The notes beneath the pieces are model-generated. The model made no database searches, was not told the DNA's origin, and worked only from the letters and a program-made list of their open reading frames with translations. Shown here piece after piece: positions 23,329 through 53,387 of a DNA stretch of 64,000 nt (the stretch's first letter is position 1; every line of letters begins with the position of its first letter). Both the position numbers and the translations under genes were made by a program. The DNA comes from Glaucostegus cemiculus (taxonomy: Eukaryota). The stretch is from contig CDPCPM010000114.1 of NCBI GenBank assembly GCA_976551045.1, positions 3,224,001 through 3,288,000 of the forward strand, written 5' to 3'.

Positions 23329-23377
23329 ATGTGTTTCATTCTGCATGCAACTGTTCTTTTGGCACTTAGCATGAATG
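23329..23377 (+). CDS. Exon 1 (signal peptide) of a single-V-domain Ig-superfamily receptor
   Basis: Kozak-like GCCAAGATG, translation MCFILHATVLLALSMN, and a perfect phase-1 donor G|GTAAGT at 23377/23378. Confidence 0.8.
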
Positions 23378-24189
23378 GTAAGTGTTTTGTACTGTAGATT
23401 ATGTTATTTCCTATGTTAGGGTAAGAAATTAAAATCACCAAAAATTAAGAAAGAATCTGATGTGAAACTATTTAAAAGATGGTTCTAAAGCACTTGTCCA
23501 GGCTATGTCGAGCAGGAGCTGGAGAGATCAATTGCATTATTTTTGCTTTGATACAAAATTATTTTGGATAAATAGGATATCTCAATTTAACTTCCAAGTA
23601 TACTTCAGAAGAGTTGAGAGATCACTTCCAGTGGATACTTCCAAACTTCTTTAACATTAAATCAAATCAAAGTTCAGCACAATGCAAAGTAACATTCTAA
23701 AAGTGCCTGGCTGTCCATTTAATAAATTTAAGCACTATTAAAAAAGATAAGCAATCTAGACAAACCTTTATCCGCCCAAGATAACAATAGTTTCTCTTAA
23801 TCTAACACTTTTAACCTAAACAATTCATCTTTAGATTTTTTTTACACACACAAGGAATAGCTAAAGATTGATTGATAGGTGATTTTAATGGGAGTTTTTT
23901 TTTAAATCAGTTGCTGGGACCAGAAAAGGTTTTAACAATTCCAAATATTGGGACCAAAGTAGCAGATTGTACAGGCACTGAACAATGATGTGTACGATTA
24001 TGCTATATAACGTTACTCTGGATTGGTCTGAGACCAGTATCTCAAATATAACTACCATGAGATGAAAGGAGCAAATGCAGAGTATGATGACCCATTCATC
24101 AATTGGAACAGGCCTTAAATCTCAATTAGCTCTGACATGGAACATGTCTTATTTGAGTTGATGAATAATACTAATTCAAATTAACTATT

Positions 24190-24285
24190 GGAAACCCGAA
24201 ATAAAAACAGAATATGCTGGAAACACTCAGAAACAAAGAGAAACAATTAACATTTCAGGTCCAGGACCTTTCATCAGAACTGGGG
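24190..24285 (-). mobile_element. Penelope-type terminal repeat relic with a minimal hammerhead core
   Basis: Minus strand 24282..24244 reads CAGUU CUGAUGA A AGGU CCUGG ACCU GAAA UG UUA AUUG. Confidence 0.6.
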
Positions 24286-25594
24286 AAAGTAATCATTCAG
24301 AATCTGTAACGTCATAGTTTATACACTGGATTAATCAACTGATGATTTTTTTTTGTGGGTTTCAGACAAAGGCTGAAATATTTTCATACTGTATGACACC
24401 AAGTATGTGTCTGGGACATGCAGCTTGGTCAGAGCATGCATTGAAGTCTGAGCTTGAATTTGGTTTGGGTCTTTCTCCAACCATATGTGACCACATTACT
24501 GACATTTACTTGTTTCATTATGTGGGTTGACTTTTGCCTTGTTAGTTTAAATTGTCTGTCACCTCTTGTCCTTTTAAAGTGACCATATTCTATTAATTTC
24601 AATCTGTATCGTTGGTGTTTAATACTCCTGTAATTCCCACCACTGCTTCCCACTGTACTAACCCTCACTGTGCTAGTGGCAATGAGAGCTAATTTAAATG
24701 CTGTTCATGAGCAATGTCTATTTAGTCTGGCTCTTTGTTTCAACAATTGCAATGATATGAACAATGGGATCTTCGAATCTTTTCAGTCAGAATCCTAAAC
24801 AGTTTAGGAGAACAGAGAGTAAAATGTCCATGATATTTTCTGATTAGCATTTGGAGCCTGACATGATGAGAGCCCAAAGTAGGAATTTGTCCTTAGTCAA
24901 TTATGATGCACCTGCAATATAGTAATGGAAGCAGAATACACCTTGCAACCCTCTCTATGTTGTGTGTTTAGCATTAGTTTAATTGTGGATGAATTTCTAC
25001 ACTCCTTTCTGTTACTCTACAGTACTAGGTTGCTGTAGGAACCAGTGGAACAATTTTGCAATAAAGCAATGAAACCTTATGTCTTTAAGGATATGAGGAC
25101 ATTGGCTTATCATCCTTGTGCAATGAATGACCTTCATTGATTTTTTTTCCAAAAATGAGCTCTGAACTAAAAATTGTCCATAAAAAATCTGTTAAATTAA
25201 AATTCCCATAAAATGGCAGGTTTTATTGCATTGTGCACATATTTATTGCCCACTGGGGTTGAATAGAAAAAGGTTCCAAATGCTGACAGTGTGAGTTCTA
25301 GCCTGGATTTTAATTAGACAAATATTCACATGTGCTGGCAGAGGTCTGAAAGTCAAGTCAAGAAACATTTTTTTTTGTTCAGATACAATATAAAAGAACA
25401 AAGTTGGTGCATTGGTCAATAATAAAGCTGCCCAAATAATTTTATTAATTATGCAAGATAGTCACCTTGTATAAAGTCCTGGTTATGTGATTTATTTTAA
25501 ATCCCATTAAAACAATTCATAGCTGATCTTGAGCTAATTTAAATAACACATAGTAAGGGGCAGGGGAAAGTTTACATTAGTCCCTGTAGTAGTC

Positions 25595-25900
25595 ATTGTC
25601 ATACAGCACGGAAACAGGCCCTTTGGTTGAACTGGCCTATGCCGACCAAGATTCCCATCTAAGCTAGTCCCATTTGCTTGTGTTTGGCCCACTTCCTTCT
25701 AAACCTTTCCTATCCATGTACCTGTCCAAGTATCTTTTTAAATGTTGATAATGTACCTGCCTCAACCACTTCTTCAGGCAGCTCATTCCGTATACGGACC
25801 ATCCTCTGGGTGGAAAAATTGCCCCTTGGGTTCGTATTAAATCTCTCCCCTCTCACCTTAAACCTCTAGTTTTTTGGTTCCCTAACCCTGGGGGAAAATG
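25595..25900 (-). mobile_element. CR1 LINE 3' end
   Basis: catacagcacggaaacaggccctttgg tail followed by cctgcctcaaccacttcttcaggcagctcattcc (reverse strand WNELPEEVVEAG). Confidence 0.88.
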
Positions 25901-26574
25901 TCTTTTGCTTAAAATCTGGGGGTCCTTCATAAAACTCAACAATAGGATCTTAACTACTCAATGAGCAACGGCGAATGTCCTGAAATCTGCTGAAGCTGAT
26001 CACTGAAACTGGGAAGCTTGTGCTCCCCTGTTGGAGTCTCATGGACTCTGGAAGTGCCTGTTCCCTCATCACAGATTTCTTGGCTTCATACAAAAGGGGC
26101 AGATCCAAGGTAACTTCCTTTAACTGGTTCAGTTGAGTTGATTTAAATATATAATTTAAATAATCATGTTCTATGTTTTCAATGTTTTTAACAGTATTTA
26201 ATTTTCAATAGTTTCTTAAGGGTTTTTCTATGCTTCTGGTGCCAACATAGCATGCCCACAACTTCCTAAACTGTACGTCTTTGTGAATGTCATAGACATT
26301 GCAAACATTCAACTTCAAGGACAATTTTGACAACTGATAACATGGGGGTGGAGCCTCATTGCCTGTGAAGGCAGCTACACTTGCAGAAGCTGTGTGCTCC
26401 CTCACAGTTGGGAGCCAGTTTCTCAGAAGGAGACTGTGCTCAAGGCCCATTCCAGGTAAAAATAGACTTCATGGGCAAATGACCAGTGAGCTCTGGTGAG
26501 TTGTTGGTCAGCAGAAGATCCAGTCCAAGCCATTATGGACCAAGTTTTCATTCCTTTGTTATTTAAGATAATTA

Positions 26575-26838
26575 TTAAGTTATCTTTATTAGTCACATGT
26601 ACATCAAAACACAAAGTGAAATGCATCTTTTGTGTAGAGTGTTCTGGGGGCAGCCCGCAAGTGTCGCCATGATTCTGGTGCCAACATAGCATGCCCACAA
26701 CTTCCTAAACTGTACGACTTTGGAATGTGGGAGGAAACCCACGCAGACACAGGGAGCACATACAAACTCCTTACAGACAGCAGCCGGAATTGAACCCAGG
26801 CCACTGGCACTGTAAAGCATTACGCTAACCGCTACACT
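26575..26838 (-). mobile_element. tRNA-derived SINE, second tail type
   Basis: Same head and core as 9955-10203 but a different 3' part (tttattagtcacatgtacatc...ccaacatagcatgcccacaacttcc on +). Confidence 0.9.
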
Positions 26839-27999
26839 TAGTAAATGCATTTTCAAAGAAGTTGTGAGGGATTTTAGACATTTAGAAAAAGGAATCTGAA
26901 GTATCTTTCAACACTGGCTTCTAATTTTATTTTAATTCATTTATTTTTAATTGGGTGCATTATTATTTTGTTGAAACTTCAAACTACTGTTTCAAATGTA
27001 AACATGACATAACTTTGTATTTTACCTGCTTCTAGTTCAGACATTATTTTGCACAGCTCTGGGTGTGGTGAATGCACTGAGGTTGATCGTGCAATGCTAA
27101 GTACAAATAGAGTTGATCTAGGCAGAGGACAAGCCAACTTGTAATGCAAAACTTGAAATCTGATGTGCACTTATCTTGCATAGATTGGGTTCAGTAAAAA
27201 GAGACCTGCCCACTTAGAAGTGCTAGGTTCATGAAGCCCCCAGAAATTTTCTAATGAGGTTCTTGCTCCATTATGTCACCTTATCACATGAACAGCTCCC
27301 AAGTAAAATGAGAATTGGAAGTTTAGTGCACTGAGCCTTTGTGGTTTTTGTTGTGGAGCAGAAGCTGTTTGCCAGTTGGAAGTGCATCTTTTTTGATTTG
27401 AATGAGTTTGCCTCTTAATAGTCTCAGCAAGAAATCTAAAAACACATTTGTAAGTATGTGTATGAATTATCATTTTCAGGTCTTAAATATTATTACTGCC
27501 TGGCTATCACTCACTCTGTGCAGGTTCTGGAGGGGAAAGGCATTATCACAATGGTGATTGTGTAGAATTTTGTGATTCTACACCATCAAATTGTGGTGTA
27601 ATAGTAACCCAGCCAGAGAATGAAGGCAACTTTAGCCAGGTGGAAATTACTCAGCATTCCTCCAAAAAGCCATTAACATGAAACAAAAATGGATTTAAAA
27701 ATAAAACTAGTCACCTTTTAGTAGCAAAAGAGACCTGTTCCCTATTTGAGTTTAATCGCATATTCTTCTGAACACACCTCCAGTCATTTAACATCTTACA
27801 GCTCTGCAACCTTAGTCTTCATACCTGTAGCTCTGTCCTTCTGTGCCCCCTCCACTCAACACTGGCAATTCTCCATTCAGCATTCTGGAACTTCCTTCCT
27901 CCACCCCTCTAACCTCCTCTAAGATCCTACTTAAAATCTCACTTTCCCATCCCAGTGGTTCCTCCTATGACTCAGGGTCAACTTTTCTCTGATCTCACA

Positions 28000-28397
28000 T
28001 TAAGACTTTATTCCTTGGAGCGTAGAAGAATGAGGGAAGATTTGATAGAGGTTTACAAAATTATGAGGGGTATAGACAGTGTAAATGCAAGTAGGCTCTT
28101 TCCACCTGGAGTAGGAGAGATAAATACGAGAGGTCATGGCTTTAGGGTGAAAGGGGAAAGGTTTAGGGGGAACTTCTTCACTCGGAGAGCGATGGGAGTG
28201 TGGAATGAGCTGCCATCTGACGTGGTAAATGCGGGCTCCCTTAAGTTTTAAGAATAAATTGGACAGATACATGGATGGGAGAAGTCTGGAGGGTTATGGA
28301 CTCGGTGCAGGTCAGTGGGAATAGTGGAATAAAGTTTTGGCATTGACTAGAAGGGTTGAATGGCCTGTTTTCTGTGCTGTAGTGTTCTATGGTTCTT
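28000..28397 (+). mobile_element. CR1 LINE 3' end, preceded by an L2-like tail at about 27800-28000
   Basis: LYSLERRRMREDLIEVYKIMRGID...TRGHGFRVKG...WNELP, ending in ctgtgctgtagtgttctatggttct. Confidence 0.92.
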
Positions 28398-29217
28398 TGG
28401 GACATATTCTTGTGATCAAGGTTTGTTATATAAATTCAAAGTTTTGTTGTTGTAGTATGTGAGGAACCCAATATGTGAATTATGATGATGTCTGTGGAGC
28501 ACCTAATCCACTGTTCACTTCCAGTATTGTAATAATTGGTTCTGCTGGCCTTGGGTAAGCCTCAGAGCTAATTATTATAAATCCTTCTTCAGGTTATAAT
28601 GGGCTTGCATTTATATGGATCGCTGGAAATCCTGAAGTAATGTTATGACTGGGAAGCAATTGGAAGAATAGTTACTATTGCAGTATAAAATGTAAGTGGA
28701 TGATGATGGATCAGCCCAAGTTTCCTTTCGTGAATAGGAAAGTCAGCTGGCAGAGGCAACCCACTACCAACCATTTAGTGTCTTGAGAAAGTTTCCCTGT
28801 TTTCAAAATGATTTTTAACAGGGAAATTTTGTAATTTTTGTTTTTGATAAAGGGTCATACCGAAAGACTTCACCTCAGAGAGCTATGTATAAATGGTGTG
28901 ATTAACAAAATTCATTTACTGTATTATAAATTTCAAAAATCATTGTTTCCAGCTCAGCTATTTTATGAATTGGAGTAAATACAGGTTAAATCTGCAAACT
29001 TCAGTAGTTTACTCTGGGCTGAGCTCGGAAGATCACCATACACCGCACCTGTAGGACTGTTTTCCCCATTCCCAAGAGCGGCAGCATACCTTCTGAAATT
29101 CACCATTTGGTGCTTGTTATTTTTGCCTTGTAGACCAACAAATGAAAAGGAAATGGAAACTATTCATATCTAATCCTTATGAACACCATACCTGATTATT
29201 GTATGTTTCATCCACAG

Positions 29218-29550
29218 TGCTTCCATGTGTGAATGAGTTCAGCAAAAATGTCACTCTTGGAGAAGACATACTCCTGGGCCCAAACTGCACAGATTGTGAT
29301 GCATTTTCAATTGAATGGAAATTTTCTTCAAACTCTATAAGCAACTGTATTTTTTCTTATATTGCAACAGAGGAATCCAGTTCTGAAACCATCTTTGGTG
29401 TATTTAAAGGTAAAGTGAACATTCTAAGCAAAGGTCTTCATTTATGGCTTCCATCTGTTCATTTCAACAACACAGGAAAATATACACGAATTCTCACAAA
29501 GAGGAATGGAATGGAGCTCTGTGTTAGCATAACAGTCAACGTACATGGAG
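29218..29550 (+). CDS. Exon 2: V-type Ig domain, CD2/SLAM/CEACAM N-domain-like
   Basis: Acceptor tttcatccacAG (29216-17), donor GAG|GTAAGG, 333 nt, phase 1-1, no stops. It shows V-set hallmarks: NVTLGEDILL (A'-B), IEWKF (C-strand Trp), FKGKV (D), LHLWLPSV (E), NTGKY (tyrosine corner) and ITVNV (G). Confidence 0.92.
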
Positions 29551-30099
29551 GTAAGGACTAAATACTAAACTGGAAAACATAATGTCATTAACAATAATAA
29601 TTACTTTTGCAGTCAGGGCTTGTTTGCGATGTGTTCTATAATGAATGAAGCATTTTGAAGTACAGTTACTATTGAATTGTGAAAAAGACCAACTTACATC
29701 CTACATCATATTTTGCCTGATTAAACATTTAATGTTCGAAAGACTTGGCTTTATATTGGCAGTGATTTTTGCTGAATGTTGCCATTTTAACATCAATGAA
29801 ATCAGGAGAACTTGGTAAAATTCCTCTTGTTACAATTTTTCCATTTTGGGTCATTTCCAAACCATGTGCTATTTAGTGATCAAAAAGGATGGCAATTGAC
29901 AGCAATTCAAGGTGACTAATCTAAAACTTCTTCACTTTTTGCCCACACCAGGAAATCCCCACATAGAAAATCTAGGTCACAAAGCTTAAGCATACTAATT
30001 ATTTGGTGCTTGAAACACAAACACTTTGACTGTAATTAAAATGGATTGGAATGATTTAACATAACAACTTAACCTTGATTGAGTGTACTTGAGCCCCTT

Positions 30100-31640
30100 C
30101 ATTAATAGCTTGCTTCACTGCTGTCCTGAACAGTGTATCGCTAGTCTGTGTCTCCCCTCTCCTTGCAGCAGTCTTGTGCTTCTTTTCCTTGCTAACCAGT
30201 TCTTGCACCTCTTTCCCTGCATGTAAAGATCTATGTTTCTCTCAGCAATTCTTCTTGCAATAATTTCATTGCCTGCCTTCCCTCCATAAATTTTACCCTA
30301 TATATAAACTCTTGAGCCTTTGCTCATTGTTGTCCTGATCTTGCCATTTTAAGTGGCGTTTCTCCTTCGCTCATAATCAAAATGACAATCTCTGATTTCT
30401 TTCTTGTTTTGCTTTCCATCCACAATCTCCTATTCCCATCTGCTCATTTTATTTATGAGTCCACCCAAAGGGGTTGTGTGATGCAGAGGAATCTCCCTTC
30501 AGTCATTTTCCGCTAAAATTTCAAATTTCTGACTGTCTAATCTCTGACTTGCTTTTTAACATGACATTTCTGTACCTGATCACCCATTCAATCCCTCCCT
30601 CTCAAGTAATTTTTGCTATCCTTGAAACCAGTATTCTCTTTTACTTGTTTACCGTGATGTATACCCTATCTTTGCTTCCTTTAAATACAGGAGATTAAGA
30701 TTAGGGCAAATTTGATGGAAAAGTGGTCCAACCATTTCATTGCCTGGATTTTCTGGACCATGTCAAGCATTATCTGATCTCAAGCTACTTTGTTCAACCA
30801 ATAATTCAAAGATTATCCAAAAATGAAAGGATAATCTCTAGCTTCCCATCCCACCCCCAACCATTCATTCCATGGTCCTCCTTCCTATGTCTTTTCCACC
30901 CAGTGTAAGGAACATTTGAAATGATTGGATACTATCCATGCAGTTCTCAGCCAATTCCATACCTTTTCCTTGCTGGTTAGTGCAAGGCTCTCTCAGGTTC
31001 CCTCATCTTGTAATCACTTCTTTCTTTGGATTTGATCCCACCTCCTTCCTTGCTTCCTCAGAATTCATCTTGTCCTTCTTCCTGTTCATTTGAAATTAAC
31101 CTAACAAATTGTTGGTAAACTAGCTTCTCTTGCTGGGCCCAATATTTGCTGTTATTAAATATTCCCGTTCCTTGCTGTATTCTTTCTGTGCTTCCAAATC
31201 TGTCATCGTCACCATACCTCCAAAATTCCACCCCACTGTCCTGATAAATTGCTATGCATCTCCAATACATCTTTTCTATCCAGAGTCCATCAACTTTGTC
31301 AGCTTTCCACTTTTTTTCAAAATTTCACGCTTGAACCTGATCTGGTTTCCAATCCTGCCACATCAGAAATGACATTTATCACCCATCTCTATCTTCTGAC
31401 CTCCCTGCTCTCCTCCAGTGTCTCTCCTCTTTATTCAGCTGGGTGAAATCTACTTCCATTCTTACATATGTCCACAAAATCAACTGGGAAGCCTTCCTTT
31501 CCCACTCCTACAATTCCCTGTCTCCAATGATATTTCCTTTGCACTCTAGTATTCCTTATCCAAATGCCAATCCTATTTGTTGTGAGAATATTAAGTTTCA
31601 CATAAATACAAGTAACATTCCTCTCACTCACTGCCATATT
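30100..31640 (+). mobile_element. Highly decayed pyrimidine-rich LINE (L2-like) relic
   Basis: Strong C/T skew typical of old L2 bodies, but no clean motif is recoverable. Confidence 0.3.
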
Positions 31641-32409
31641 TTAGGATCATTCTAACCCTTGTTTTGATCAGATATCACACTGTTTGCTAGTGAATGAGCA
31701 GGAAGTTCCTATAACTAAATGCTGAGAAGACTGAAGGCATCAGTCACCTAGCAGAGAGCTGATGGCAGTCTGGTGGCTGAAGAGATGGTGCTGTGTATTC
31801 GTTTTAACCTCTTTCACTGAGCATACAGTCTATGCTCTGTTATCAACAGGCTATTGTTCTCCCAATAAATAACATAGCTGTAAGAAAATAATCTGATCTA
31901 ATGCACATCAGAGGCTTAATTCCTTTATAATATGATGTTATTTTCTGGCAATCAGCAACAAATTATTACCCCATAAACTTCAGTGATTATTTTATTCTAC
32001 TGTAAGGCTATTATCATGTGAACAGTGCAATGCAAAACTAAAATGAAATCTGAATTACTTTTGCAAATGCTTCTCCTAATATGTCCATGGAATAAATAAC
32101 CATGCATCGTTAGTAGCCACATCTGGCCACTTTCAACAAAAGAGTGAAGAAGCACAGGCTCCCAGTGTTGCAGATTCAGTCTATGGATGGTGTTGAGATA
32201 GCTCATCTCCATCAGGATGAAGGTAGGCCAAAAGCAGCAGCAACAGCTTCCTTTTATATAGTGCCTTTAACATAGCGCAAACAGCAATATGGTATATCAA
32301 GGATATTGAGACCTTAGGATGTATTACTTTCATACATTTGTTTCTTGCCTAATTGAAATGGGAAGAAAAATGCAAAAAGCATAGCATTGGAAAAACACAA
32401 ATCTGGTAT

Positions 32410-33320
32410 AATTGGAATTGGTTTATTATTGTCACTTGTACCAAGGTACAGTGGAAAAACTTGTCTTGCATTCTGTTCATACAGATCAATTCATTACACA
32501 GTGCATTGAGGTAGTATGAGGTAAAACAATACATAATGCAGAGTAAAGTATCATAGCTGCAGAGAAAGTGCACTGCAGGTAGTCGATGAGGTGTAAGGTC
32601 ATAACGAGGTAGGTTGTGAGATCAAGAGTCCATCTTATCATACTAGGAACTGTTCAATAGTCTTATAAGAGCGGGGTGGAAGCTGACCTTGAGCCTGGTG
32701 GTACGTGCTATCAGGCTTTTGTATTTTCTGCCTGATGGGAGAGGGGAGAAGAGAGAATGTGCTGGGTGAGTGTGGTCTTTGATTATGCTGGCTGCTTTAA
32801 TAAGGCAGCAAGAAGTATAAACAGAGACCATGGAGGGGAGGCTGGTTTCCATGATGTGCTGAGCTGTGTCCACAACTCCGCAGTTTCTTGTGGTCATGGG
32901 CAGAGCAGTTGCCATACCAAGCTGTGATGCATCTAGATAGGCTGCTTCCTATGGTGCATCGATAAAAGTTGGTGAGTGTCAAGGGGGACATGCCAAACTT
33001 CTTAAGCCTCCTGAGGAAGTAGAGGTGCTGGTGAGTTTTCTTGGCCATGGCGTCTCCATGGCTGGACAAGGACAGGCTATTGGTGATGTTCAATCCTAGG
33101 AACTTGAAGCTCACTACCTTCTCAACTTGAGCACAATTGGTATAGACAGGTGTATGTGCACCACCCCTCTTCCTGAAGTCAATGACCAGCTCTTTTGTTT
33201 TGCTGATATTGAGAGTAAGGTTGTTATCGTGACACCATGTCACTAAGCTCTCTACCTTCGTCCTGTACTCCAACTCATTATTTGAGATACTACTATGGTG
33301 GTATCATCTTCCAACTGATA
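32410..33320 (-). mobile_element. Rex1/Babar-type LINE 3' portion with tail
   Basis: ORF 32797..33273 (WCHDNNLTLNISKTKELVIDFRK...LYFLRRLKKFGMSPLTLTNFYRCTI) and ORF 32643..32915. Confidence 0.92.
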
Positions 33321-35879: not shown

Positions 35880-36215
35880 AGGCTTTTGTAAGATCTTGCT
35901 ATACAGTTTTGGTCTTCCTACCCAAATCAACATATACTTGGAAGAGGTGCAAATATTTGATTGTTTCCAAAGTTGAGATTTGTACCTTAAGAAGAAGAAA
36001 TGAGTAGCAAGGTTTTATTTTGGAGTTTGAATCTTGGAAAATCTTTCAGAGTGATGGAGAGAGGTGAGAGGTTGTCTCCTTTGGCTGGAGAGTCAGGAAC
36101 TAGAGGTAAGGGTCTCATAATAGGGAGTCAGGTATTTAAGACTGAATTGAGGAGAATTTTTTCACAAGGCATTGTAGGGTCTAAAGATTTTTGAAGTTTC
36201 TGGTAACTAAGGCAA
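35880..36215 (+). mobile_element. Decayed CR1 fragment
   Basis: cagttttggtcttcc and ggagagtcaggaactagaggtaagggtctcataata (GESxTRG motif). Confidence 0.6.
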
Positions 36216-37679: not shown

Positions 37680-38125
37680 CTGTCTGTCATGACCCAGAGT
37701 TGAGCTTCTAATTACATAGCTGCATCGTCACAAAGGCATCATCCATTCTGTCCTGCATCAGCTCGCCTGTCACTGATACCCTCTGCTGTGCTCTTGTTAT
37801 CAGTAGTCTTGATTGTCACCTAAAGCTTTGATATCTGTGTTCTAATTCACCTGTGATTTATGTTGGGTCCTGCTTAAAGACTTTTTAAATTTTTTCATGG
37901 TTCCCTATGGCTTTGCTCTTTCTAATCCCCTAGAATGCTCCCATAATTCTAGTCCTTTTAGCAATCTTGTTTTTGTTGTCCATAGTTGGTAGCTGCCAAA
38001 ACTTGTCTGGAATTCCCTTCATAACCCACTTCCTCCATTTAAAATACTCCTTGAAACTTTCTTGTTTAGTTGAGTCAAGTATCTCCTGATGTGGTTCAGT
38101 GAGGAATTTTGTCTGCTATTTCTTA
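37680..38125 (+). mobile_element. Decayed L2-type LINE 3' end
   Basis: tctggaattccctt...tccatttaaaatactccttgaaact resembles an L2 tail. A similar tail is at about 42700-42915. Confidence 0.45.
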
Positions 38126-41029
38126 AAGAAAAAAGTATCCTCCTAAGTTTGCTTTTCGGAGTTAAAGTTGCTATTATTGGTGTCATTGTATTTTTGCTCC
38201 TCTTCCTTTGTAATGTGAAGGATTTGCCTTTTGCATTGAATAATTTTGGGGGGTAATGCATAAATGTTCAAAGTGTACAAGGAATACAGTGGAGTAGCTT
38301 CTCACAATTTTGTCAGGATGTTGAATGTTTCTTGGCATGTCCACTACCTTTGGTGTCAAAGGTGCCACTACTTTTTCATCCACATGGAAAGACAGGACAT
38401 TCCTGTGGTTTCCTACTATAACCGCAATAAGGAAAATTAGTTACTGAAAGCAAGAAAACAAATAAAGTCAAAATAAGAGCAATTGTTCTAAGTAAAAATT
38501 TGTCTAAGATGCTTGGAAATAAGTTTCAGTAACATTTAAGCCATTCACTCAGAGGTTGCTAGATTTTGGAAGTACAGGTGGGTGCACCAGTCCTGGGTTA
38601 CTGGAGCAAAGGACTGGCTCTCCATAATTAACCTTGCTACCAATGTTATTAAATAAAAAGGAATCTGACTTTGTCCATCATTCACTGTGAATCAGTGACC
38701 CTGATATTAACCCTAACATGCCATCGGCAATCCTATTGTAGCAAACCTTCTAGCTCACCGTGTAAAATCTGGCAATGCTTCTTTTGATATATTCAACATT
38801 TAAGAGCTTTATGTCCTCTCATTGCTTTTATTTTGCTTTAGATGGCAGCATAACTGTTCTTAACCCTCCTGTTAAAGTTACCACTTGAGGTTAAAATATG
38901 AACCTCCAGGTGGCAGTACATTTGTTTTGATGGTTCTGGAAAAATGGAGAGAATGTAGACACATTTTAAACTTTTTTTAAATTGGTATTCACTTTCTGAA
39001 AATTGCATGCCTGCCCCTTGGATATGTTCATGTGTGCTTTCTGGTCTCTTTGTCGTCTCTCTGTTAATTCTAATGAATGGCAAGGATTTTTGGATCCAAT
39101 GTTAGGGGCTATTTGTGAAGGTAAGTGAGGAAGGTAGGGTAATGTATTTCATTATCCTAATCTTGAAAATAAATGGTTCAATGGTGAGCCATTAAAAGCA
39201 TGTTGTCTGAATTGTAATTCTCTTATTTAAGTTGCATTTCAGGTTTTTTTAAAGCAGAGCTACTGACCCCTTTTTCCCTATTCAATGAGGAAGACTGGCA
39301 CTGACTTGCCAAGTCCCAATGCATCTTTGCTTCCTGTTCCCAGTACAGTCACACATAAGTGAGGTGAGTGTTCTGAATAAAAGAGCTCACTTATGAAAAA
39401 TCTGCTAGCAGAAACAGCAGATCTGCCAATCAGAAACATTATAAATAAACAAATAGTCCTGCCAAGTTCGTCGGCTGAGATATGCATCTTGCTTCTGTCA
39501 ACTCTGGTCCCCATCTGAAATTCACTCTGCGCTTGATCTGCTCTAAGTGACAACTGAATCTTATCAATTAGAAAAATAGATTGCATACATTATTTGCAAG
39601 TAATTCTTCTGGAAAAAAACATATTGCCTGTCAATTTTAACTCCCTCCAACAGGTGCAAGCTAGACAAGGGGCATTGCAAGCTCTCTTTCTATCCTGTTT
39701 TGGCAAGTGTAATTTTAAATTTGTCTGCTTCCTTGTGACCTTCTTGAAGAAACACTTCTATGTGCTAGTGGCACCTTTGGGAGTTGTTTTGAGAATGTGC
39801 TTATTGTGGTCAAATAGTGCAAGTTGTAAATGTTCTGCAATGTATGAAGTGTGGGCAAGTGCGAGCTGCCAAAGTGATCTGAGGGGAAAGTGCAGAACTG
39901 AGGGAGGCGGGAAGTGGACTACAATAATTGGAGAAGAGTGACAGAAAGTGAAGATGTGGTGAGTAGAGAGTTCTGTGAAAAGTGAGGCTGCAGAGAGGAT
40001 TTGTATCCTAACAAAATTGAGAAGCCGTGTAAGTTTTTCAGCATTGCCAGCTTGTCCTAACAGCAGATTTCCTACCAATAATCTCATTTAGCCACAGCTT
40101 CCTACAGTTCCTGCTAATGCTAGAGGGTTTTCCTGAAGGGATTTTGGAGAAAAGATCTCCCTCTTCACCACCAGAACTGGGATCTCTAGACCCCAGTTTT
40201 ATGGACAAATCCAACTGTAGGCCTTGTCACAGTTTCTCAGCTTCACAATTACTTGTCTGGGGCCAGAGTGCACACACCCTTTGGGGCATGGACTGCCTTT
40301 AAGTGATGTTGGGGAATCTAAACTTCTTGCTCGCCCATCTTCCTTTCCCTCTCCCTACATTTTGTATTGCTTAGTCCATACCCTATAGGTAGCATGGATA
40401 GTGGATGGATACCAGCTCATAACTATGATTGGTGATATTGAATCTGAAAGGATGTCTCCTGGAGGCACACCTGGCCTGCCAGATACAACCTTCCAACATG
40501 ATATTCTCAAATGGCACTTACCTCTTGTGGCTCTGTGGGATTATCTGCCCAGAATCCATGGAATTAACCAACCTGAAACGGGTCCTGAGGGATGACCAGA
40601 CTTCAGACAGTCGACCCTGAGGCACCATCCTTGAACTACCCTCAGAGTGAGAAACATCCAAAAACAGTTTAAATAGAAAAAGTAAACAATAAATATTATT
40701 AAAGTAAGTTCCTACAATTGATTAAGAATGCAGATTAAAACAAGGAGAAATAAAAAAGTTACCTGCACTTTTTAACCATGGTCAGAAACACCACTCAAAT
40801 GAAATAGGGTTCTGCTGCTTCAGCTGCCTGGCAGGCTGAGGGGACAGATAAGAAGTCCTTCTGGCTCAGCGCTCAACTGTCAGTACTCCAGCCCTGGACT
40901 TCGGTACCATGTCCACTGGCAAAGTGGGAGGGCAGATGGTTGTTCTGCCCTCCCACTTTGGTTGCAAGCTTACATGTGGAGGTCAGAGGTGAGTGGGTCT
41001 GCAAGTAAGGCATGGCCAGCTGTTCCTTC

Positions 41030-41600
41030 TATTGGCAAAGGTAGACATTGACGAGGAAGTTCACCATCTTCAGTGCACCAGCACAGCCTTGGGGTGGAAA
41101 AGAATATTTAAAGATCAAGACCTCAGACCTAGCACAAAGCTGTGTTCCCTGCACGTCTATGTACCCTGAGATCTCAAGCACCAATATCAGGCACCTGAAG
41201 GGACTGAATAAATACCATTAATGCTGTGTCTGCAAAATCCTCCAAATTCATTTGATGGATAAGTGATTAAATGCCCGCATTCTTTCCCAGGATAATGTTG
41301 CCATTACCAAGATCCCAGTTGCCCTCGGTTAGTTACATTGAGCCAGCCACACCATCGAGTGCCCAGCACCAGCCTCCTGAAATCGACCTCTGTTCCGAGC
41401 TCTATCATGGGAAGAGGAAAAAATTCAAGAGAGTGCTCAAAGCCTTCTTGAAGTGTAACATCCCCACTGACTCTTCAAAGTGGAGAAGGAACATCTGGGA
41501 TGGTATTGAAATCCTAGACTGCATGCACAAAGGGTAGATGCAAGCCCCATCCACCATCTATTCTGTCAGCCACATCTAAATACTTCAGAACTAGACTGGA
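41030..41600 (+). mobile_element. Decayed RTE-clade LINE 3' fragment
   Basis: gtagacattgacgaggaagttcaccat (DIDEEVHH) and aggcacctgaagggactgaataaataccattaatgctgtgtctgcaaaatcctccaaattcat (RHLxxLxKYHxxCxxKILQIH) match the RTE RT C-terminus. Confidence 0.7.
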
Positions 41601-44600: not shown

Positions 44601-46488
44601 GTATTCAAACGCAGAAGGCCCAAACTTTCACATACCTAAATTCTGATGCTGTTCTTACTGTACCCCCAAAGAATCTAGTGGTGGAGTATGAGATTTGACT
44701 GTTCCCCAGCAGTCTTGCAGGCAAATCTGTTGTAGGTTCAGCAGCATCATTACAGGTTTCAGGTAATTCGCATTTCTTTTTGATTTTAATTGAGTTCATC
44801 TGAAACATAATTGCTTTTATAGGTTTGCTGGTGTCTACGTGTTTTCATTTGATTTGTATAATGTTTCTTTTACATTTTAAGTGTCATTAATTTATTTTAA
44901 TAGATTTTGAATGGGGATATTCACAATCATTTGACTTCATTGATAACCTTGGCAGCTGGTTCTGCCTCAGCTGTCAAGCCATTTCTTTAGGATTGACAAT
45001 TGGCTGGTTTGATTGACTCGTAGAAGGTTTGTGAACAATATCCCATTCAAAGTAAGAGATGGTTTAGTGGGTAAGTAGGTAAGGAGTTGCTTTGCAGAAG
45101 TTTTAGGCCATCAATGTTTTTGAAGCTTGTAACCCGAGCTCTTTCAGAGGTGTAACACATTGTTTCGTCATGGTAAAAAAAATTATTAAAGACTTATTGC
45201 AAACAAATCTCATTCAATAATATACACATTCCTACAATTTGATGGTATACTGGGAAAGGGATGCTTTCCTCCTGTTTTAGAGAAGAGGAATACAAGATTC
45301 ATAAGGCCTTATTAACCTACTTCTATGGTTTTGACTAGCTAAGCTAAAATTGCTCATGTAACCTGCTCACACCAACCCTGCTGCCTTCTTGTGGACTACA
45401 ATCTTAACTTGCTCTTCCAAACTACTGTGATGGACATTCTCCTGAATGCAAATGTGACACATAAGGAAATCTTGTATCTACTCTTTCCCTGGTTCTCTCC
45501 ACTCCCACTTAAGACTGCAAAAGAACCTCCTGACCAACATATTCTCCATTTACCTGAAGGAGAACTCCTTCAAACCTCTTGTTGTGACTTCCTATCACTC
45601 AACGTGCCACTCTTTTCTCTGGAAACCTACTGTTTGCTGTCAGGTGGAGCATATGCAGAGGAAGCCCAGAAATTTAAAGTTTCTTAAGCTTTACATCATA
45701 GAGAGCCAGTCTGCCTTGCATTTCAACACATTAACATGAAGAACAACAATTATCCCTGTAATGTTTTGAATGAGATGGCAAGCAACATCATCCTGAATGG
45801 TTTTTATTCACTCATTTTCCAGGATGTAGGCATTGCTAGTATGGCCAGTATTTTGTTTTTGCTGTGTAGTATTGCCCTTGAGAAGATGTAGGTAAGTCAT
45901 CTTCACTGTAGTCCTACTAGTGAAGATACTTTCATAATGCTGTGGAATGGGGAAGTTCAAAGACTTAGAAGCAGTAGAAAGAAGGAACAGTGAGAATATT
46001 CCCAGGTTATAACAATGTTCAAACTGGACTTGGGACCTTCAGGTAGAAGCATTTCTATACTACCAGCACCATCATTCATCAATACAGGTGGAGGTTCTAC
46101 CAGAGTAGCTGGGGTAGGAGACTGCAGTGCATTTTATAGATGGTACACACTGCGGTCACTATGCACTACTGGCAGAGGAATGTGGAATAAAAAAATGTCA
46201 AATTTTAGAAAAATCAGATCATTCATGGGTTAAAACAAATGCTGCCTTCTGAGGAAAAGCCTCCAGAAGTTCATTAATGATCAGAGAACCACCACCTTTC
46301 TCCCCCCACACAATTCAGTTAAAACCACAAAGAGAATTTCCAATGTTAGCATTCATGTTTACATGCACTGAATCTCGGGTCTCCTGAAGAGTATTATTGT
46401 TAATTAACAATACTATTATGCTGTATTAATTGGAACAAATCTCCCTGTATTTGTTGCATGAGGGCCTTTTAAGAAATGTTTTCAAACA

Positions 46489-46716
46489 AGATATCTTTAT
46501 GTGTTTCGATGTACATGTGACTAATAGTGAAATGCACCTTTCACATAGAGTGTTCTGGGGGCAGCCCACAAGTGTCGCCACGCTTCCAGTGCCAACATAG
46601 CATGCCCACAGCTTCCTAACCTGTACGTCTTTGGAATGTGGGAGGAAACCAGAGCACCCGGAGGAAACCTACACAGACACTGGGAGAACGTACAAACTCC
46701 TTACAGACAGAGATAT
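46489..46716 (-). mobile_element. 5'-truncated SINE (second tail type) with an internal micro-inversion
   Basis: Matches 26575-26838 and 50410-50690, and is flanked by agatat at 46489-46494 and 46711-46716. Confidence 0.88.
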
Positions 46717-47944
46717 GAGTCATTTTAGGCCTTCACTTGATATGTATGTAATTAACATTTAAAAATTAGCATTAAATTATTTCAAGAACAAAGGTACCAA
46801 GGGGAAAATTGGGCTGGGTAGCACCTGTTTTCTAGGTGTTAGGCTATTTCCTAACACTTGAGCATGTGATTGGAACATGCACACTTCTTATCAGGGGTGT
46901 GCCTTTGCAATGCTGCTGTAGCTGTTAGCTACAAATGCACAACCACTTTACAGAGTATGTGGGTTTAATGGCATCAGTAGGCAGTGCTCCTCTGATACCA
47001 GTAGTACTATTTTTGAACATAGAGCTCCAACCTACACCTTTCTTTAACCTTACACAACTAAAATTTCATTAAATGCAATGAACTGAACTAAACTGCCTAG
47101 CCTTTAGTGTTATTAAAGGAATCGTGAACAATTCACAAGTTAGTTTCTGCAATACTTTTTTGGTGGCTGGTGTAATTCTATATATTTTGGGCTTTCCAAT
47201 ACTTGGATAATGTTGGAATGGTCTGGAGGGAGAGGTCTGGCTGGTGCTGAATACCTTTCTATTTAATTTAAAAGCTTGTGATGTATCAAGTTGTTTTCAG
47301 AGCTGTGAGATATGGGAAAATTGCTTGACACAAAGCTCAGTGAAGTGATGCACATGACTTGAAGGCTTGATTATTAATTGAATTTGTTGATACGTGGCCA
47401 GAGAAGATATGGCTTACTAAACTGTGAATGTGAATTGTGGTAGATTTTGCCATTTGAAGATTGAACTTGTACACCTTGACAACTTGTGTCAAGTCATTAA
47501 ACATCCTCCTGCATTGTCTTCTGTTCTTGGACTAACCTTTCCAATATTAACTTTTGCCATTATTGTTTCCAAAGCATGTATTTTGTATTATTGTATAGAA
47601 TGTCCTCATTTCAAGTTCCTGCAGCAATTTAGAATCATCAGTGCACGGAACCAATATTTTCTATTACAGAATTTTAACAAACGTGCATAGACTTTGAAAG
47701 GTCAAAATCATAACTTGTAATTTTGCTTTACCTTCAGTAGAAAAGAAATTAATGTCAGTGGTGGTTCCACAGTGTTTTGATTCTAATTATTTTGCATTAT
47801 GTTCAAATAAATCAGTGATCTCTCTCCTCAACCAGAAGAAGAGTTGGTGGTGCAATGGTCTATATGTTCAGGTACAAGTTCACTCACATCATTATCATAG
47901 GGGATATTCTCCTGCATCATGGACCTCAAGTAATGAACTAATTA

Positions 47945-48360
47945 GTGTTACAGACACTCTTTGGTTTGCCTGAAACTTGTTGGTCTCCCAGCACTGTGAG
48001 ATATCCGTGGGGGCATGCTGCTGACTGGCACATTCCAGGCTGCAGGGGTACATGCTGAGGGATGCACTGAAGCTGAGTGCAGCCAGTGCAAGGGCTCGGT
48101 GAGGAAGGACTACAGTTTAGGGTTCCTCTACCACTGGAGAGGAAGGGGTGGGGTCAGGTGAGAAAGCCCCTAAATATTGTAAATACAGGATTGGGGCAGC
48201 ACCCCAGGGAGCCACACGAGTGGCATTGGTGCTGTGATTTTTATATAAAAAGGTAACACTAATTATTGATCCGTACACAAATGTAAAGGTTTGCACTGCT
48301 TTATTGTTGTATGTAGTTTTTTTTATAATGAATTAAGTTTATTTTGGAATTTTAAAAAAT
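47945..48360 (+). mobile_element. Tx1/L1-clade LINE 3' end
   Basis: Translates as DTLWFA*NLLVSQHCEISVGACC*LAHSRLQGYMLRDALKLSAA, followed by a 3' UTR ending tttataatgaattaagtttattttggaattttaaaaaa. The clade call is from recognition. Confidence 0.7.
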
Positions 48361-48667
48361 TAATTAGTGTTAGTCAAGGAAGGAACAGGCTGAGCAAATT
48401 GTGTTTATTTGTAAAATGTGAGGGAAGCTGCAATGCCACTTAATAAAAGGAAAACAGTTTTAAAGAAACCAGAACTATATTCAGTGTGAAACAAATATTA
48501 ATGAAGTCTATCTTTCTTATCTTACAAATTGGGATGTATATTCTTCGTCAATGCTTGCATCAGGAAGTAGTCTGGATAGCTTCCTCCTTCCTTTCTATTT
48601 CTTCAACAACGTGATGAAGAGATTTCAGTCTGATCCACTAATAACATTTTATTTCAATGTGTTTCAG

Positions 48668-48748
48668 ATTTCAGAGAAGCAGAAACTTTTGAGATAAACC
48701 AGACAAAACCAAAAGATAATAGCTTGAGAACAACAATGTACCTCTCAG
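48668..48748 (+). CDS. Exon 3: extracellular stalk
   Basis: Acceptor tgtgtttcAG, donor CAG|GTAAC, 81 nt, phase 1-1. Reads (D)FREAETFEINQTKPKDNSLRTTMYLS with an N-glycosylation sequon NQT, and the end runs into the TM. Confidence 0.72.
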
Positions 48749-49990
48749 GTAACACCACAAACTGTGTGTGGCTTAAATCTTAGTTTATTTTCAATCCAGT
48801 TCACAAATGTTCAGATGTCATTGTGCATGACAGATATTTTTAAAGCTCTGGAACCAGCTACACAAAAAGATTTTGGGAAACTAAATTCAGCTGATCTTGA
48901 AGCTTTATCAGCACTGGATTAGGCCCAAAGGATGGGTCCAAGCATAGTTTTGATATTTCCATATATTTTCTGAGTGGGTGGGAGTGGGATTTGTGTAAAG
49001 AGCGTTCCACTAGCTTCCAGCTTCTGCTCCCATTTTTACGAATCATGCCAAAATGACAGTAGGCATTGAATATGCCCATCTGTATCTGAGTTGTGTGAAG
49101 ATTATGGGTTAATGTATTTTCAGTTATTAATACCTCAGCAGTTTTGGGAATTTTGTATTGGCATGGTAGATGGGACAAGGGGCAACTCAAAGGCATGGTA
49201 TGTTCTAATTGGTCAAATTGGAGGTTTAAAATTGTTTTCAATAATCTTTAAAGATTATTAATGAATACAGCAGTTTTATAAATGACAGGATATATTTTCT
49301 CTCATATCTTAATTCTCTCATATTTGAATTTATATGATTCAGTGTATTTTCATTAAACAGCTTACAGTGTAGAAGAATTGTACCAAACTTTGAACATTGG
49401 AACCAGTTCTGTAGTGTCAAGCTGGTTGATAAAGCAGGGTAAAACAAATTATCTGTCAAATCAGATCTGCAATGGCTTCAGCCCCAGGCTTCTCAGCCAA
49501 TTTTTCTTGCTCCCCTGTTAGTCAGTTTACCCACAAAATGACTACACTAAGCTTTATATAGCCTGTGTTATTGAGCAATCAAAATTTACTCACACTCATT
49601 GACATAAGGATCAGATAAACAATCATACTCAAGGGAGCTTTACTTTATTGCCTTCTGTCATAAGCAGTTAGAACTTTAATGGTTTCCTGTACTGTGAGTC
49701 TTTGCCTTTCATCTTTGATCTTTCAATAATAATATTCGGGAGCCCACTAATAGATGAGCTTACATTAGAGCCGCTACTGGCATTTTCTCCGGCTACAGGG
49801 AACATTAACTTTACATATTTTGTTACATTTGAACATATCTTGAATTAGCTCAGATGTGTTTAAGACCATATGACAAACAGAAACTCTTTTCTGAGCAAAA
49901 TTTGTTTAATAATGTGACTTTTCTCAATGCAAGTTATTTGTTATTTAATAAATGAGCATTATTATTCATTAATTGTACTATTTATAATAG

Positions 49991-50074
49991 TATCAATCAT
50001 TGGAGTCGTTTTAGGAGTGGCAATAATACTTGTTTGGATTAAAAGAAAATCAACTGGGAGAGCAGCGTCATCAG
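49991..50074 (+). CDS. Exon 4: transmembrane helix and basic stop-transfer
   Basis: Acceptor tttataatAG, donor CAG|GTAAGA, 84 nt, phase 1-1. Reads (V)SIIGVVLGVAIILVWI-KRK-STGRAASS. Confidence 0.85.
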
Positions 50075-50409
50075 GTAAGAAACTACAGCTCCCCAAGAGA
50101 AATGTATGTGTGACGTAGTTTGGAATTGCTTGTCAAACTTTTAACATTTGAAATACTATTGCTTAGTCACTCACATGTCTATAGAAGTAATCAGAAACCT
50201 ATATATTTCACTCGGAAATCTCTTGAAGTGATGCATTGAAGAAAAAGTACAAGGAAAACTCTGCTCATGAACACATCTGGGGAAGAGGAGTCTAAATTTT
50301 CTTCATGAGATTAGGGGTTTTGGTGAAAGACAAAGGGCTCTTTCTTTTTTTGGACACTAGGAGATGTTGCTGTTAAAGTGTTCTTTCAGCAGTTAGATTT
50401 TCCTTTATG

Positions 50410-50690
50410 TAAGATTTTCTTATTAGTCACATGTATGTCAAAACACACAGTGAAACACATCTTTGAGTAGAATATTCTGGGGGCAACCCACAGGTGTCAT
50501 CACGATTCTGGCGCCAACATAGCATGCCCACAACTTCCTAACCTGCATGTGTTTGGAATGTGGGAGGAAACTGGAGCACCCGGAGGAAACCCATGCAGTC
50601 ACAGGGAGAGCATACAAACTCCTTACAGACAGTGATGAGAATTGAACCCGGGTCGCTGGCACTGTAATAGCATTATGCTAACTGCTCTAT
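50410..50690 (-). mobile_element. tRNA-derived SINE, second tail type
   Basis: Homologous to 26575-26838, with the B-box visible as aattgaacccgggtcgctggc on +. Confidence 0.9.
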
Positions 50691-52003
50691 TAAAAACTGA
50701 CAGGTTCAATTCCAGGTAGTCCTGGCTTAAAATTCTTTCTATGATTTTCTCTGTTCAATGTATCTAATTAAGGTAGTAGATCAAAGGAAGTCAATAGGCT
50801 ATGTGTTAACAATATTACATTGGAGCAGTAAAATTTACTGTATATCTGCCAAAATCTTGAAGCTGTGTTTTTAAATGTTTTTATAATTTTATGGAACAAA
50901 ATCAAAATATAGAAAATCTTCCAACTGTGGTCTAAGTCAAGCCAGCTGTGATTGGTTTTCATGAAAAAATTACTAATGTTCAGCTGTTCAGAGGTAGCTA
51001 GATCCATACACATGGGTGCCCTGTCTTCCTTCTGGGACAAACCTACATTATGACATTACACTGGGAAACCTTTCTGTGATCCTATACCAGCAAGACCTGG
51101 CAACTGATTGGAACATTCATTTGAATGGTGTTCCAAGACCCAGGGATGAGGAAAAAAATGTTTCAGTTGTTTAAATTTTGTTTATTTAAAAAAAGCATTA
51201 AATTTTGAAGTAGTGGTTTAATGTGCTTTTCATTCTTTGTTAAAGTATTTTTATTTTAATGATTAATGTATCATTGTCTAATTTAATATAGTTTAACTGT
51301 CTCTATTGAAAACTTGTTACAAATTGCTTCCTAGCTCTACCCCAGCTTTGCCTCTTGTTGAAGACTTTCAGGGTACAACAGGGTATGACCCAGTGATATG
51401 TCAGCTGAAGTCAGGTTGCCACTGAGGCTTTCCTATGTCTTGCTGTCCATCTATGAGTTTGAGAACTCCATATCAATTGAATCCACGTGTCTGGACCAAG
51501 TTAGTACAGATGTAGGCAGAGTACTGGGTGTGAGTCCAGGTGGCTGGCCAAATTGAGTCATATGTTTCTAATGTTGCTAACAGGAAGGCAGCAAAGGAAA
51601 TCTTTCCCCGAGTTACTTTAACTCTAACCACAGATTTTGAGCAGACACGGTATCTCTGTTTCCTTGTTACTATACAAACCACACCTGTGGCTCACTACAT
51701 TTGTCATATAGGTTTATATAAAAGATAATTAACATTTGCACTTAAACAGCACTGCATTACCTTAAAACACCCCTTCACATTGGCCTGGATTTACTGAGTG
51801 GGCTCCATTGCACGCTTCCCTCAGAAGCCCAGTGGTCCTACACTTAACCAGATTAAGATCCAAAAGGCCGATTTTTCTGAACAAGAGTGTCCAATTGGAA
51901 TGATCCTGAAAGGCACCAGGACTTCCAGTTCTGTTATCCAATGACATGGGTGGGCCAGAACAAACCCTATGCATGAAACTGCTTTGACAAATGGCAAAAC
52001 CTG

Positions 52004-52499
52004 TGTCGAACTTGGTCGGAGAGAAAACTCAAAAGACTCAAAAAATTTCTCTGAGAGAAATCTCGTTCAAACTTCTTCCTTTATTTGATCCAAGGAGAGA
52101 GCATCAGGTCAGGCACTCATGTCCCAGACCCAGTGGTCTCTGAAGTATATCAGCTTACACACATTCTTATACTTTTTCAGAGGTACAAACTATTACCTTA
52201 CAAGGAATGATCATGCATCAATAATAATGATTGGCTGCAGACAAAGTTACAGACTCAAAATAGTTTATACATTAGTCTTAGATAATGGTTCCTTAAAGTA
52301 GCCAAGCCATCTGGGCTTCAAGGTTCCTCTTGGCCTGGACTTCAAGATTAGTTTAGGGAACAAAGTTGCTGTACAAACCTGCTGGAAAAGGAACTGAATA
52401 CAATGGTGTAATTATATCTCTAGGCTGCAGAACTTTAGCTGAAGCAAGCCGAATTTCCAAGACAAGGTCATGCAAAGCAAAACATGTCTGTTCCCGACA
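52004..52499 (-). mobile_element. Solo LTR (ERV-like), antisense in intron 4
   Basis: Ends are TGTCG...CGACA inverted termini. On the minus strand CCAAT (52234-52230), TATAA (52171-52167) and AATAAA (52085-52080) occur in U3-R order. No exact TSD. Confidence 0.7.
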
Positions 52500-52906
52500 C
52501 TCTAATACAGTCATTAATGGCATCCATGTTAATTCACGTCTCAGAGCTCACAATCTATATACTCCTAACCCCTCTATACCTTATATACATTCTCACCTGT
52601 CCCCAGCTTTGTTGACTGTCAAGACTTTTCAGTGCTTTGAATGTTCCCAAATATCATTGACATTCATATACATTCAAAAATGATTTAAATATGATGCAAA
52701 TAAAATTAAATTTTAAAAGTAGTTACTGGGATTCAATGAAAACATTGGCGTAATACTTAAAAATATAACCTGTATTCTTACAATAAACTAAAATTTATTC
52801 AGAAAACTTGACTTCCATTTTGGCAGCTGAATATTTGAGAACTGTTGCATTTTAGATTGTGCCTTAATTACAACTTTTCTGGTTTTGCTCTTTTTTTTCC
52901 TTGAAG

Positions 52907-52986
52907 CAAATAGATTTTCACTCTCAACCATTTCTAAGGAATATCCAATTTACAGCAATTGGCGTCGCCCAAGATGTAGTTGGTAA
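52907..52986 (+). CDS. Exon 5: cytoplasmic tail with tyrosine motif
   Basis: Long polypyrimidine acceptor ctcttttttttccttgaAG, phase-1 start. Reads (A)NRFSLSTISKEYPIYSNWRRPRCSW* with TAA at 52984-86, overlapping a consensus donor TG|GTAAGT at 52982/52983. Confidence 0.78.
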
Positions 52987-53387
52987 GTAAAATTTTAGTA
53001 AGTAAAAGAAATGAAAAAAGAAGTTTATAGATATGATATCTGATCCCTCCTACACCCACTATTTCTGGGTAGATCTACTCCAGATCTGATAATTACATTT
53101 GTAATGGTAGGTTCAACCACACTTTCTTTAGAGTAAAAGCAACTACTGGCATATCTGTGATTCACCATCAATATTTGTTACCCATTTCTTTTTACCCAGA
53201 GTAGGGTGTAACACAGTTTAAGTTTTCAGCCATTCTTTCTTGCCCGTAGTGGTTCCTTGGGATTGCATTAGCTTGCTTATTACTTCCTATTTGTTGCTGT
53301 GCCACTATGTTATGAGCTTAGCTGTTCCTGCGAAAGACTGTGCTTTGAATGTGAAATGTGTCTCAGGCACACATACTCTCTTTTCAG

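Follow-up and report, generated by a model that had tools for sequence, protein, structure and literature searches.

An undescribed single-V-domain receptor gene with a conserved tail tyrosine motif in sharks and rays

Among living animals with T and B cells, sharks and rays form the oldest group, and the catalogue of their co-signalling receptors is still growing. Receptors of the CD2/SLAM family (CD48, 2B4, CD58 and NTB-A) have a V-type immunoglobulin (Ig) domain without the disulfide that joins strands B and F, a feature also found in CEACAM N domains and in VSTM5, and 2B4 and SLAM have a disulfide between strands A and G. DNAM-1 (CD226), which has two Ig domains, and CD28H (TMIGD2) carry one YxN motif near the C-terminus and an uncharged membrane helix, and have no ITIM (immunoreceptor tyrosine-based inhibitory motif). 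Phosphorylated YxN is the consensus of the Grb2 SH2 domain, and activation of DNAM-1 needs both the tyrosine and the asparagine, according to the accessible text of PMC4647266. The accessible part of PMC11599192 describes a similar YxN-type motif in CD28H and catalogues nine CD28-family members in sharks and rays. Here we analyze a 64,000-nucleotide stretch of the genome of the ray Glaucostegus cemiculus (GenBank assembly GCA_976551045.1, contig CDPCPM010000114.1; G000:C114:3224001-3288000, where G000 is this genome and C114 the contig), which we call the window and in whose positions the gene is described. It holds an undescribed member of this known kind of receptor, already predicted in databases. 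Our best reading is that the gene belongs to neither the CD28 family, the CD2/SLAM family nor BTLA, and that its product would work like a co-stimulator of the immunoglobulin tail tyrosine (ITT) type.

A spliced six-exon gene with a split stop codon

A preliminary description of the window had proposed a hidden five-exon gene, and its exon coordinates and four splice sites were borne out. On the plus strand these are the coding part of exon 1 (23329-23377), a leader peptide with a phase-1 donor, whose N-terminus matches the orthologues; exon 2 (29218-29550), a single IgV domain with three N-glycosylation sequons and no B-F disulfide; exon 3 (48668-48748), a 27-aa stalk that is conserved in the orthologues and missing from Heterodontus isoform X2 (P0096); exon 4 (49991-50074), an uncharged transmembrane (TM) helix followed by basic stop-transfer residues; and exon 5 (52907-52986 as first read), the cytoplasmic tail. 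The five sum to 627 nt, and the four introns between them are GT-AG and all phase 1, giving one stop-free frame that had been read as 208 aa. Junctions 23377/29218, 29550/48668, 48748/49991 and 50074/52907 are based on orthologous RefSeq models.

The end of the gene had to be revised. Four bases upstream of the stop codon first read there is a consensus donor (52982/52983), and splicing from 52982 to a sixth exon, whose start at 56754 was traced through skate isoforms that skip exon 5, completes a TGA stop across the junction. Exon 5 as the last exon was rejected on the evidence of this donor and of an RNA joint to 56754. The corrected exon 5 (52907-52982) closes with two of the three bases of the stop codon, the first and second; exon 6 (56754-57120, 3' end approximate, plus strand) holds the third base and the 3' untranslated region, with AATAAA at 57088. 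The product is 207 aa long and lacks the final Trp. It is identical without gaps at 195 of 207 positions to RefSeq XP_051871088 of Pristis pectinata (also 207 aa), which puts the gene far beyond chance. The corrected model is a real spliced six-exon gene.

The gene is transcribed in a close relative, four RNA runs of which (X1, X2, X8 and X9) were placed on window positions 50700-57400; this RNA differs from our genome at 14 of 370 bases of exon 6. The joint from 52982 to 56754 (GT..AG) was seen in three reads from two starts in X8 and in one read in X9, and the first mates of the joint reads are minus-strand, which is what plus-strand RNA should give. No such joint is listed in the contig sets of X1 and X2. 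Contigs of X1 span 52905-52982 and 56751-57120, and another X1 contig (depth 7.85) connects exon 6 with an extra exon that ends at 54369, marking an optional cassette exon on the plus strand (54315-54369, 5' end at or before ~54315) with a consensus donor at 54369.

The stop codon is thus split by the last intron (52981-52982 plus 56754), and 16 of 17 orthologues end no more than two residues from the same place; the Mustelus model continues through a Trp codon at the split-stop position. This layout would avoid nonsense-mediated decay. Within intron 4, the segment 52074-52220 draws many reads that stem from other loci (X8 depth 141, with loose ends at either side) and is probably a transcribed repeat, and just 3' of exon 6 a 66-bp unit is perfectly repeated in tandem, in two copies (57457-57591).

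Database models point to forms in which the tail is altered. An alternative acceptor 7 nt downstream (exon 5 form 52914-52982, plus strand) shifts the frame into a tyrosine-free tail that runs into exon 6, for a predicted 226 aa, and catshark RefSeq isoforms X1 and X3 (P0101, P0098) share this frame; in skates, RefSeq includes models with exon 5 skipped. Neither form was seen in reads over 50700-57400, and both are database predictions. Acceptor 52914 as the main form was rejected, since the orthologues and the X1 contig use 52907, and a conserved YxxM motif in exon 6 was rejected as confined to Amblyraja.

Orthologues across sharks and rays

The V exon retrieved five ray and skate proteins and two shark proteins, and a profile built from nine sequences, in a search that requires exact 5-residue words, retrieved 18 proteins, all from elasmobranchs. 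With cluster members included, RefSeq models exist in 18 species (seven batoids, that is, rays and skates, and 11 sharks), so the gene is not hidden as had been claimed. Orthologues are 198-215 aa long, apart from one read-through model of 291 aa, and every one has a single Ig domain; they are 49%-74% identical to the Pristis model. For alignment we used 17 orthologues, each from a different species and none from Cetorhinus, and all 17 run V-stalk-TM.

These RefSeq entries are automatic predictions, uncharacterised or mislabelled. Their labels read "uncharacterized," "VSTM5-like" (Leucoraja, Amblyraja and one Heterodontus isoform) or si:ch211-213a13.1 (Heptranchias only), and LOC127569988 (Pristis pectinata), LOC125456797 (Stegostoma), LOC121290869 (Carcharodon), the skate "VSTM5-like" entries and the Heptranchias entry are the same gene. 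The statement that the gene cannot be assigned to a named one held: all matches are from sharks and rays, and no named 1:1 orthologue was found. The proposed restriction to a cartilaginous-fish lineage is unproven, because NCBI gives the Heptranchias orthologue a zebrafish gene symbol. No orthologue was found in chimaeras, bony fish or tetrapods by searches that were word-dependent or used a short divergent query, which makes this weak evidence; one weak teleost V-domain match came from Pseudorasbora (E 3.6e-4, 24% identity). A word-dependent profile search for longer proteins (511-2000 aa) gave none. Long bacterial and metagenome repeat proteins among the V-exon matches were rejected as summed weak repeat matches. 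Among the database holders of exon 2 that were listed, none is recorded as RNA, which carries no weight either way.

We found no literature on this gene, with most subscription papers out of reach, and no mention of six of the orthologue LOC ids in the papers searched. A search for CD2/SLAM in sharks returned no papers, and the titles listed for CD200R, shark and CD2 included none of relevance. The accessible text of PMC13262535, PMC9135397 and PMC13640574 holds nothing on this gene.

V domain, stalk and membrane helix

Five residues do not vary across the 17 orthologues: Cys20, Trp50, Tyr105, Arg107 and Cys118. The canonical B and F positions have no cysteine, and the F-strand position is held by an invariant Arg (17/17). 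A pair of cysteines lies at the A and G strands, as in 2B4 and SLAM, and Cys20 and Cys118 would be joined by an A-G disulfide. The three sequons are spaced 12 and 61 apart. An AlphaFold model of the V exon has an IgV fold (predicted local distance difference test [pLDDT] 91, predicted template modelling score 0.85); the full-length alignment gave a pLDDT of 36, and only the V-domain model was used.

The V domain had been called CD2/SLAM-like. It is of the CD2/SLAM/CEACAM type in lacking B-F cysteines, and the best Pfam match of the protein is Receptor_2B4 (E 0.038), but the fold search does not single out CD2/SLAM. Its top match was nectin-1 domain 1 (Z 15.4, root-mean-square deviation [rmsd] 2.3, 107 aligned residues), followed by CD48 (Z 14.1), CD200RLa (14.0) and JAML, 2B4 and TIGIT (13.9); the latter five lie within 0.2 of one another and are effectively tied, so the fold cannot fix the family. 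CD48 has the highest identity among the top matches (24%; rmsd 1.9, 94 aligned). Foldseek gave a similar list, headed by nectin-1 and sodium-channel beta4. The V exon had no sequence match in the PDB at E 10, and profile A2 reached E 0.036 at best against the PDB.

Unlike CD2/SLAM members, the gene has no C2 domain, no ITSM (immunoreceptor tyrosine-based switch motif), no Pro-rich tail and no GPI-type anchor, and it sits among CD200R- and TIGIT-like genes. We rejected the idea that intron 2, 19 kb long, hides a C2 exon: none of the 84 open reading frames (ORFs) scanned, out of 86 of at least 45 aa, matched an Ig family, and the C2 exon of a neighbouring gene, used as a query on the intron, found nothing. 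Intron 2 also holds a non-repeat segment (37934-38440) with several overlapping frames of 50-85 aa on both strands and a weak LIM match (E 0.004; no PDB match), perhaps a decayed retrocopy. No residue of the membrane helix is charged, and its GxxxG motif is present in 17 of 17 orthologues.

A conserved tyrosine motif and its proposed function

The tail contains P-I-Y-S-N (52945-52959, plus strand; Tyr198 codon 52951-52953), a predicted Grb2-SH2 site. As P-[IV]-Y-[GS]-N it occurs in all 17 orthologues, with P196, Y198 and N200 invariant and the residue at +3 from Tyr198 varying between W, L and Y. Mean column identity is 0.96 over the five motif residues, 0.63 over the 22 residues before them (172-193) and 0.49 after them. 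ITIM, ITSM and YxxM are absent from the tail in all 17. The corresponding motif of DNAM-1 is D/E-I-Y-V/M-N, compared with P-I-Y-G-N in this orthogroup.

A CD28-like layout and tail had been proposed, and the single IgV-TM-tail layout and the YxN motif (17/17) are indeed shared with the CD28 family as delimited in the accessible text of PMC11599192. The likeness ends there. The YxC and PPP/E-I-P motifs given by that text for the third complementarity-determining region (CDR3) are absent; all 17 orthologues have Y105-x-R107, and the FG loop has no Pro. CD28H has YxC and E-I-P in CDR3 and fsd1/stap2 synteny, none of which is seen here. The best 150 of 221 exon-like ORFs within 464 kb around the gene held no non-Ig gene, and CD28-family synteny markers (fsd1/stap2 for CD28H; pudp/sts/anos1 for CD28X) were not seen among them.

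On balance we find it somewhat probable that the product is a leukocyte co-activating receptor acting through Tyr198 phosphorylation and Grb2 recruitment, with silent tyrosine-free isoforms. Its ligand would be a surface protein of the Ig superfamily (IgSF). Once the ligand is bound, Tyr198 would be phosphorylated, by Src-family kinases as in DNAM-1, and phospho-Tyr198 is predicted to recruit Grb2, with Grb2/Vav/PI3K signalling as in DNAM-1. A DAP12 or FcR-gamma partner would be unneeded because the membrane helix carries no charged residue, and the tyrosine-free splice forms may act as silent or decoy versions. With a single conserved signalling motif, the mechanism is simple to test. The orthogroup lies outside the nine members listed in the accessible part of PMC11599192 and is mislabelled or unnamed in databases. 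No general principle changes, lineage-specific IgSF receptors being common.

Alternative explanations

Several observations weigh against a co-activating receptor. The ITT-like motif of TIGIT belongs to an inhibitory receptor, and YxN amounts to two fixed residues only. RNA depth is low (0.8-3.8 in X8, <0.2 in X9). Among the neighbours, the CD200R and CD200 labels come from weak PDB matches (E 4e-4 and 1e-3 for CD200R; nectins rank above CD200), domain layout and motifs. The Atlas ranks VSTM5 clusters first, and the structural neighbours include the non-immune adhesion proteins nectin-1, sodium-channel beta4 and JAML. In the part covered, the single-cell cluster-marker tables of PMC11372145 do not include LOC122555098, the orthologue in bamboo shark. 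The main alternative, which we consider rather unlikely, draws on several of the same facts: the protein could be an adhesion molecule or ligand in the style of VSTM5, SCN4B, JAML or CD58, on non-immune or antigen-presenting cells, with the tyrosine motif serving trafficking or weak outside-in signalling. The fold leaders nectin-1 and sodium-channel beta4 suit such a role, as do Atlas feature and structure matches with VSTM5 clusters and JAML-like, CD48-like and LFA-3 entries at their head, a GxxxG motif that could support dimers, and the missing marker in the part-covered bamboo-shark table. The invariant Asn at +2, however, fits Grb2 rather than YxxPhi sorting, the +3 residue varies, and the locus is an immune-type IgSF cluster.

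VSTM5 itself shares a length of about 200 aa, the order leader-V-TM-short tail and a V domain without canonical cysteines, and both the RefSeq "VSTM5-like" names and the top Atlas match (a VSTM5 cluster, 0.96) would make the gene VSTM5 or a recent duplicate of it. We hold this to be highly improbable, given the stalk exon and the conserved tyrosine motif here and a separate gene on contig C13 (G000:C13:15753685-15756680, at 15.75 Mb; L075, L110) that is likely the true VSTM5 of this genome, which would make those labels misleading. The membrane exon of the C13 gene is, we take it, VSTM5-like; its V domain is 17% identical to the one studied here, and the tree does not join them. Its sequons are spaced 44 and 14, like N43/N87/N101 of mouse Vstm5 in the accessible text of PMC5528877, as against 12 and 61. 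Searches of the genome for MED17 and multicopper oxidase, as signs of HEPHL1/MED17 synteny at the C13 gene, gave no matches; the 200 kb beyond C11orf54 on contig C281 held no V exon; and the Atlas gave no name for the C13 V exon.

The age of the gene is a separate matter. It could predate elasmobranchs as the orthologue of the uncharacterised zebrafish si:ch211-213a13.1, a jawed-vertebrate gene lost in mammals, which would be compatible with a co-activating receptor. We regard this as a tentative possibility: it is suggested by the NCBI symbol on Heptranchias XP_067848417 and by the weak Pseudorasbora match, set against a name found in one of 18 species, a profile search yielding elasmobranchs in 18 of 18 cases and an empty search for longer proteins, both of them word-dependent. 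Papers that name si:ch211-213a13.1 are silent on its structure in their accessible text. That the gene is a strongly diverged BTLA, CD2 or CD58 that lost its C2 domain or its ITIM/ITSM seems quite improbable. In mammals BTLA, a single-domain receptor with a Grb2 site, is a neighbour of CD200, and bamboo-shark gene ids near the orthologue include the CD2/CD58-region markers VANGL1, Na/K-ATPase alpha, PTGFRN and VTCN1, if id order can be trusted. These markers are nonetheless some 75-90 ids away, the gene lacks the B-F disulfide, a C2 exon and a Pro-rich tail, and no orthologue carries an ITIM or ITSM; BTLA has both in tandem (accessible text of PMC12151841).

The locus and its neighbours

The preliminary description had suggested comparing synteny with the CD2/CD58, SLAM and CD28/TMIGD2 loci, and the locus turned out to be absent from that list: we infer a cluster of CD200-, CD200R- and TIGIT-like genes. 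The 464 kb around the window begin with two nectin/CD200-type V exons; next come a single-V gene that lacks the B-strand Cys and a CD200R-type V+C2+TM gene on the minus strand, then the studied gene, and beyond it another gene of CD200R type and a pair of TIGIT-like V exons. A Pfam scan of the best 150 of the 221 exon-like ORFs found only Ig domains and one retroelement. The two CD200R-type genes (G000:C114:3190598-3199701, minus; G000:C114:3312133-3330492, plus) flank the studied gene and are divergently oriented; the second has a P-S-Y-A-S-Y tail exon, which we take to resemble CD200R1. The studied gene does not have the V domain with a canonical B-F disulfide that marks CD200R-, TIGIT- and nectin-type receptors, and it is separate from these neighbours in the tree.

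The only clear PDB-based call is that of the TIGIT-like exons, one of which was tested (best match TIGIT, E 2.5e-13). The two are near-identical (L034 and L042; G000:C114:3374922-3375368 and 3453666-3454220), and the second, in which an in-frame donor is missing from the usual position, continues into a long interspersed nuclear element. A literature search on TIGIT/CD200/BTLA synteny found no paper on TIGIT in cartilaginous fish. The two tandem nectin/CD200-type V exons lie 2.2 kb apart (G000:C114:3052683-3055781; L008, L009) with no C2 exon found near them by pattern, and either make up a single two-V gene of CD200- or CD226/CD96-like kind, perhaps, or may reflect a duplication. Beside these CD200-like exons, on the minus strand, is the single-V gene without a B-strand Cys (L003, L012; V exon G000:C114:3091650-3092057, TM exon 3085317-3085436), presumably at the place where BTLA lies in mammals.

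The closest paralogue is another single-V gene, on the minus strand of contig C123 (L002, L054; V exon G000:C123:6481931-6482269, TM exon 6472496-6472591). Its V domain is 32% identical to the studied one globally and 41% locally, although the tree join is weak (81/66). It has no B-F cysteines and carries a CxxC in the BC loop, as the batoid orthologues do, and no C2 exon was found between V and TM. In the tree, the clade of the studied gene (99/98) groups with V domains that lack the cysteines and stands away from the CD200-, CD200R- and TIGIT-like sequences, with weak deep nodes. A ray cluster of this kind with extra Cys-less single-V genes is a clue to the origin of the mammalian 3q13 checkpoint region and of the CD2 family. 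One could go further, in a speculation that we regard as unlikely, and see the gene as the activating counterpart in an ancestral checkpoint cluster of CD200R and TIGIT. It would combine a V domain of CD2 type with a bare Grb2 tail, would have been kept since the split of sharks and rays and lost in mammals, and would be the founder of a small single-V family (the C123 gene and that at C114:3.09 Mb), with conserved splicing (the tandem acceptor and exon-5 skipping) switching between signalling and tyrosine-free decoy forms.

Besides VANGL1, Na/K-ATPase alpha, PTGFRN and VTCN1, the gene ids near LOC122555098 in a bamboo-shark table are those of UPK1B, BACH1, a dynein light chain of Tctex type and MID1IP1, among others. 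Should ids run in chromosomal order, the gene and the CD2/CD58 region would be on one chromosome. A C2-set family search of the genome, which could have placed CD2 and CD58, returned no matches. Around the C123 and C13 genes, 49 exon-like ORFs scanned against Pfam yielded no useful marker. Elsewhere in the genome we noted a partial DUF4174 match at G000:C114:1319218, 1.9 Mb from the gene and apparently of the SRPX type, and adjacent DUF4174 and nucleotide-sugar transporter genes at G000:C143:1.22-1.27 Mb, which would be CCDC80 and SLC35A5.

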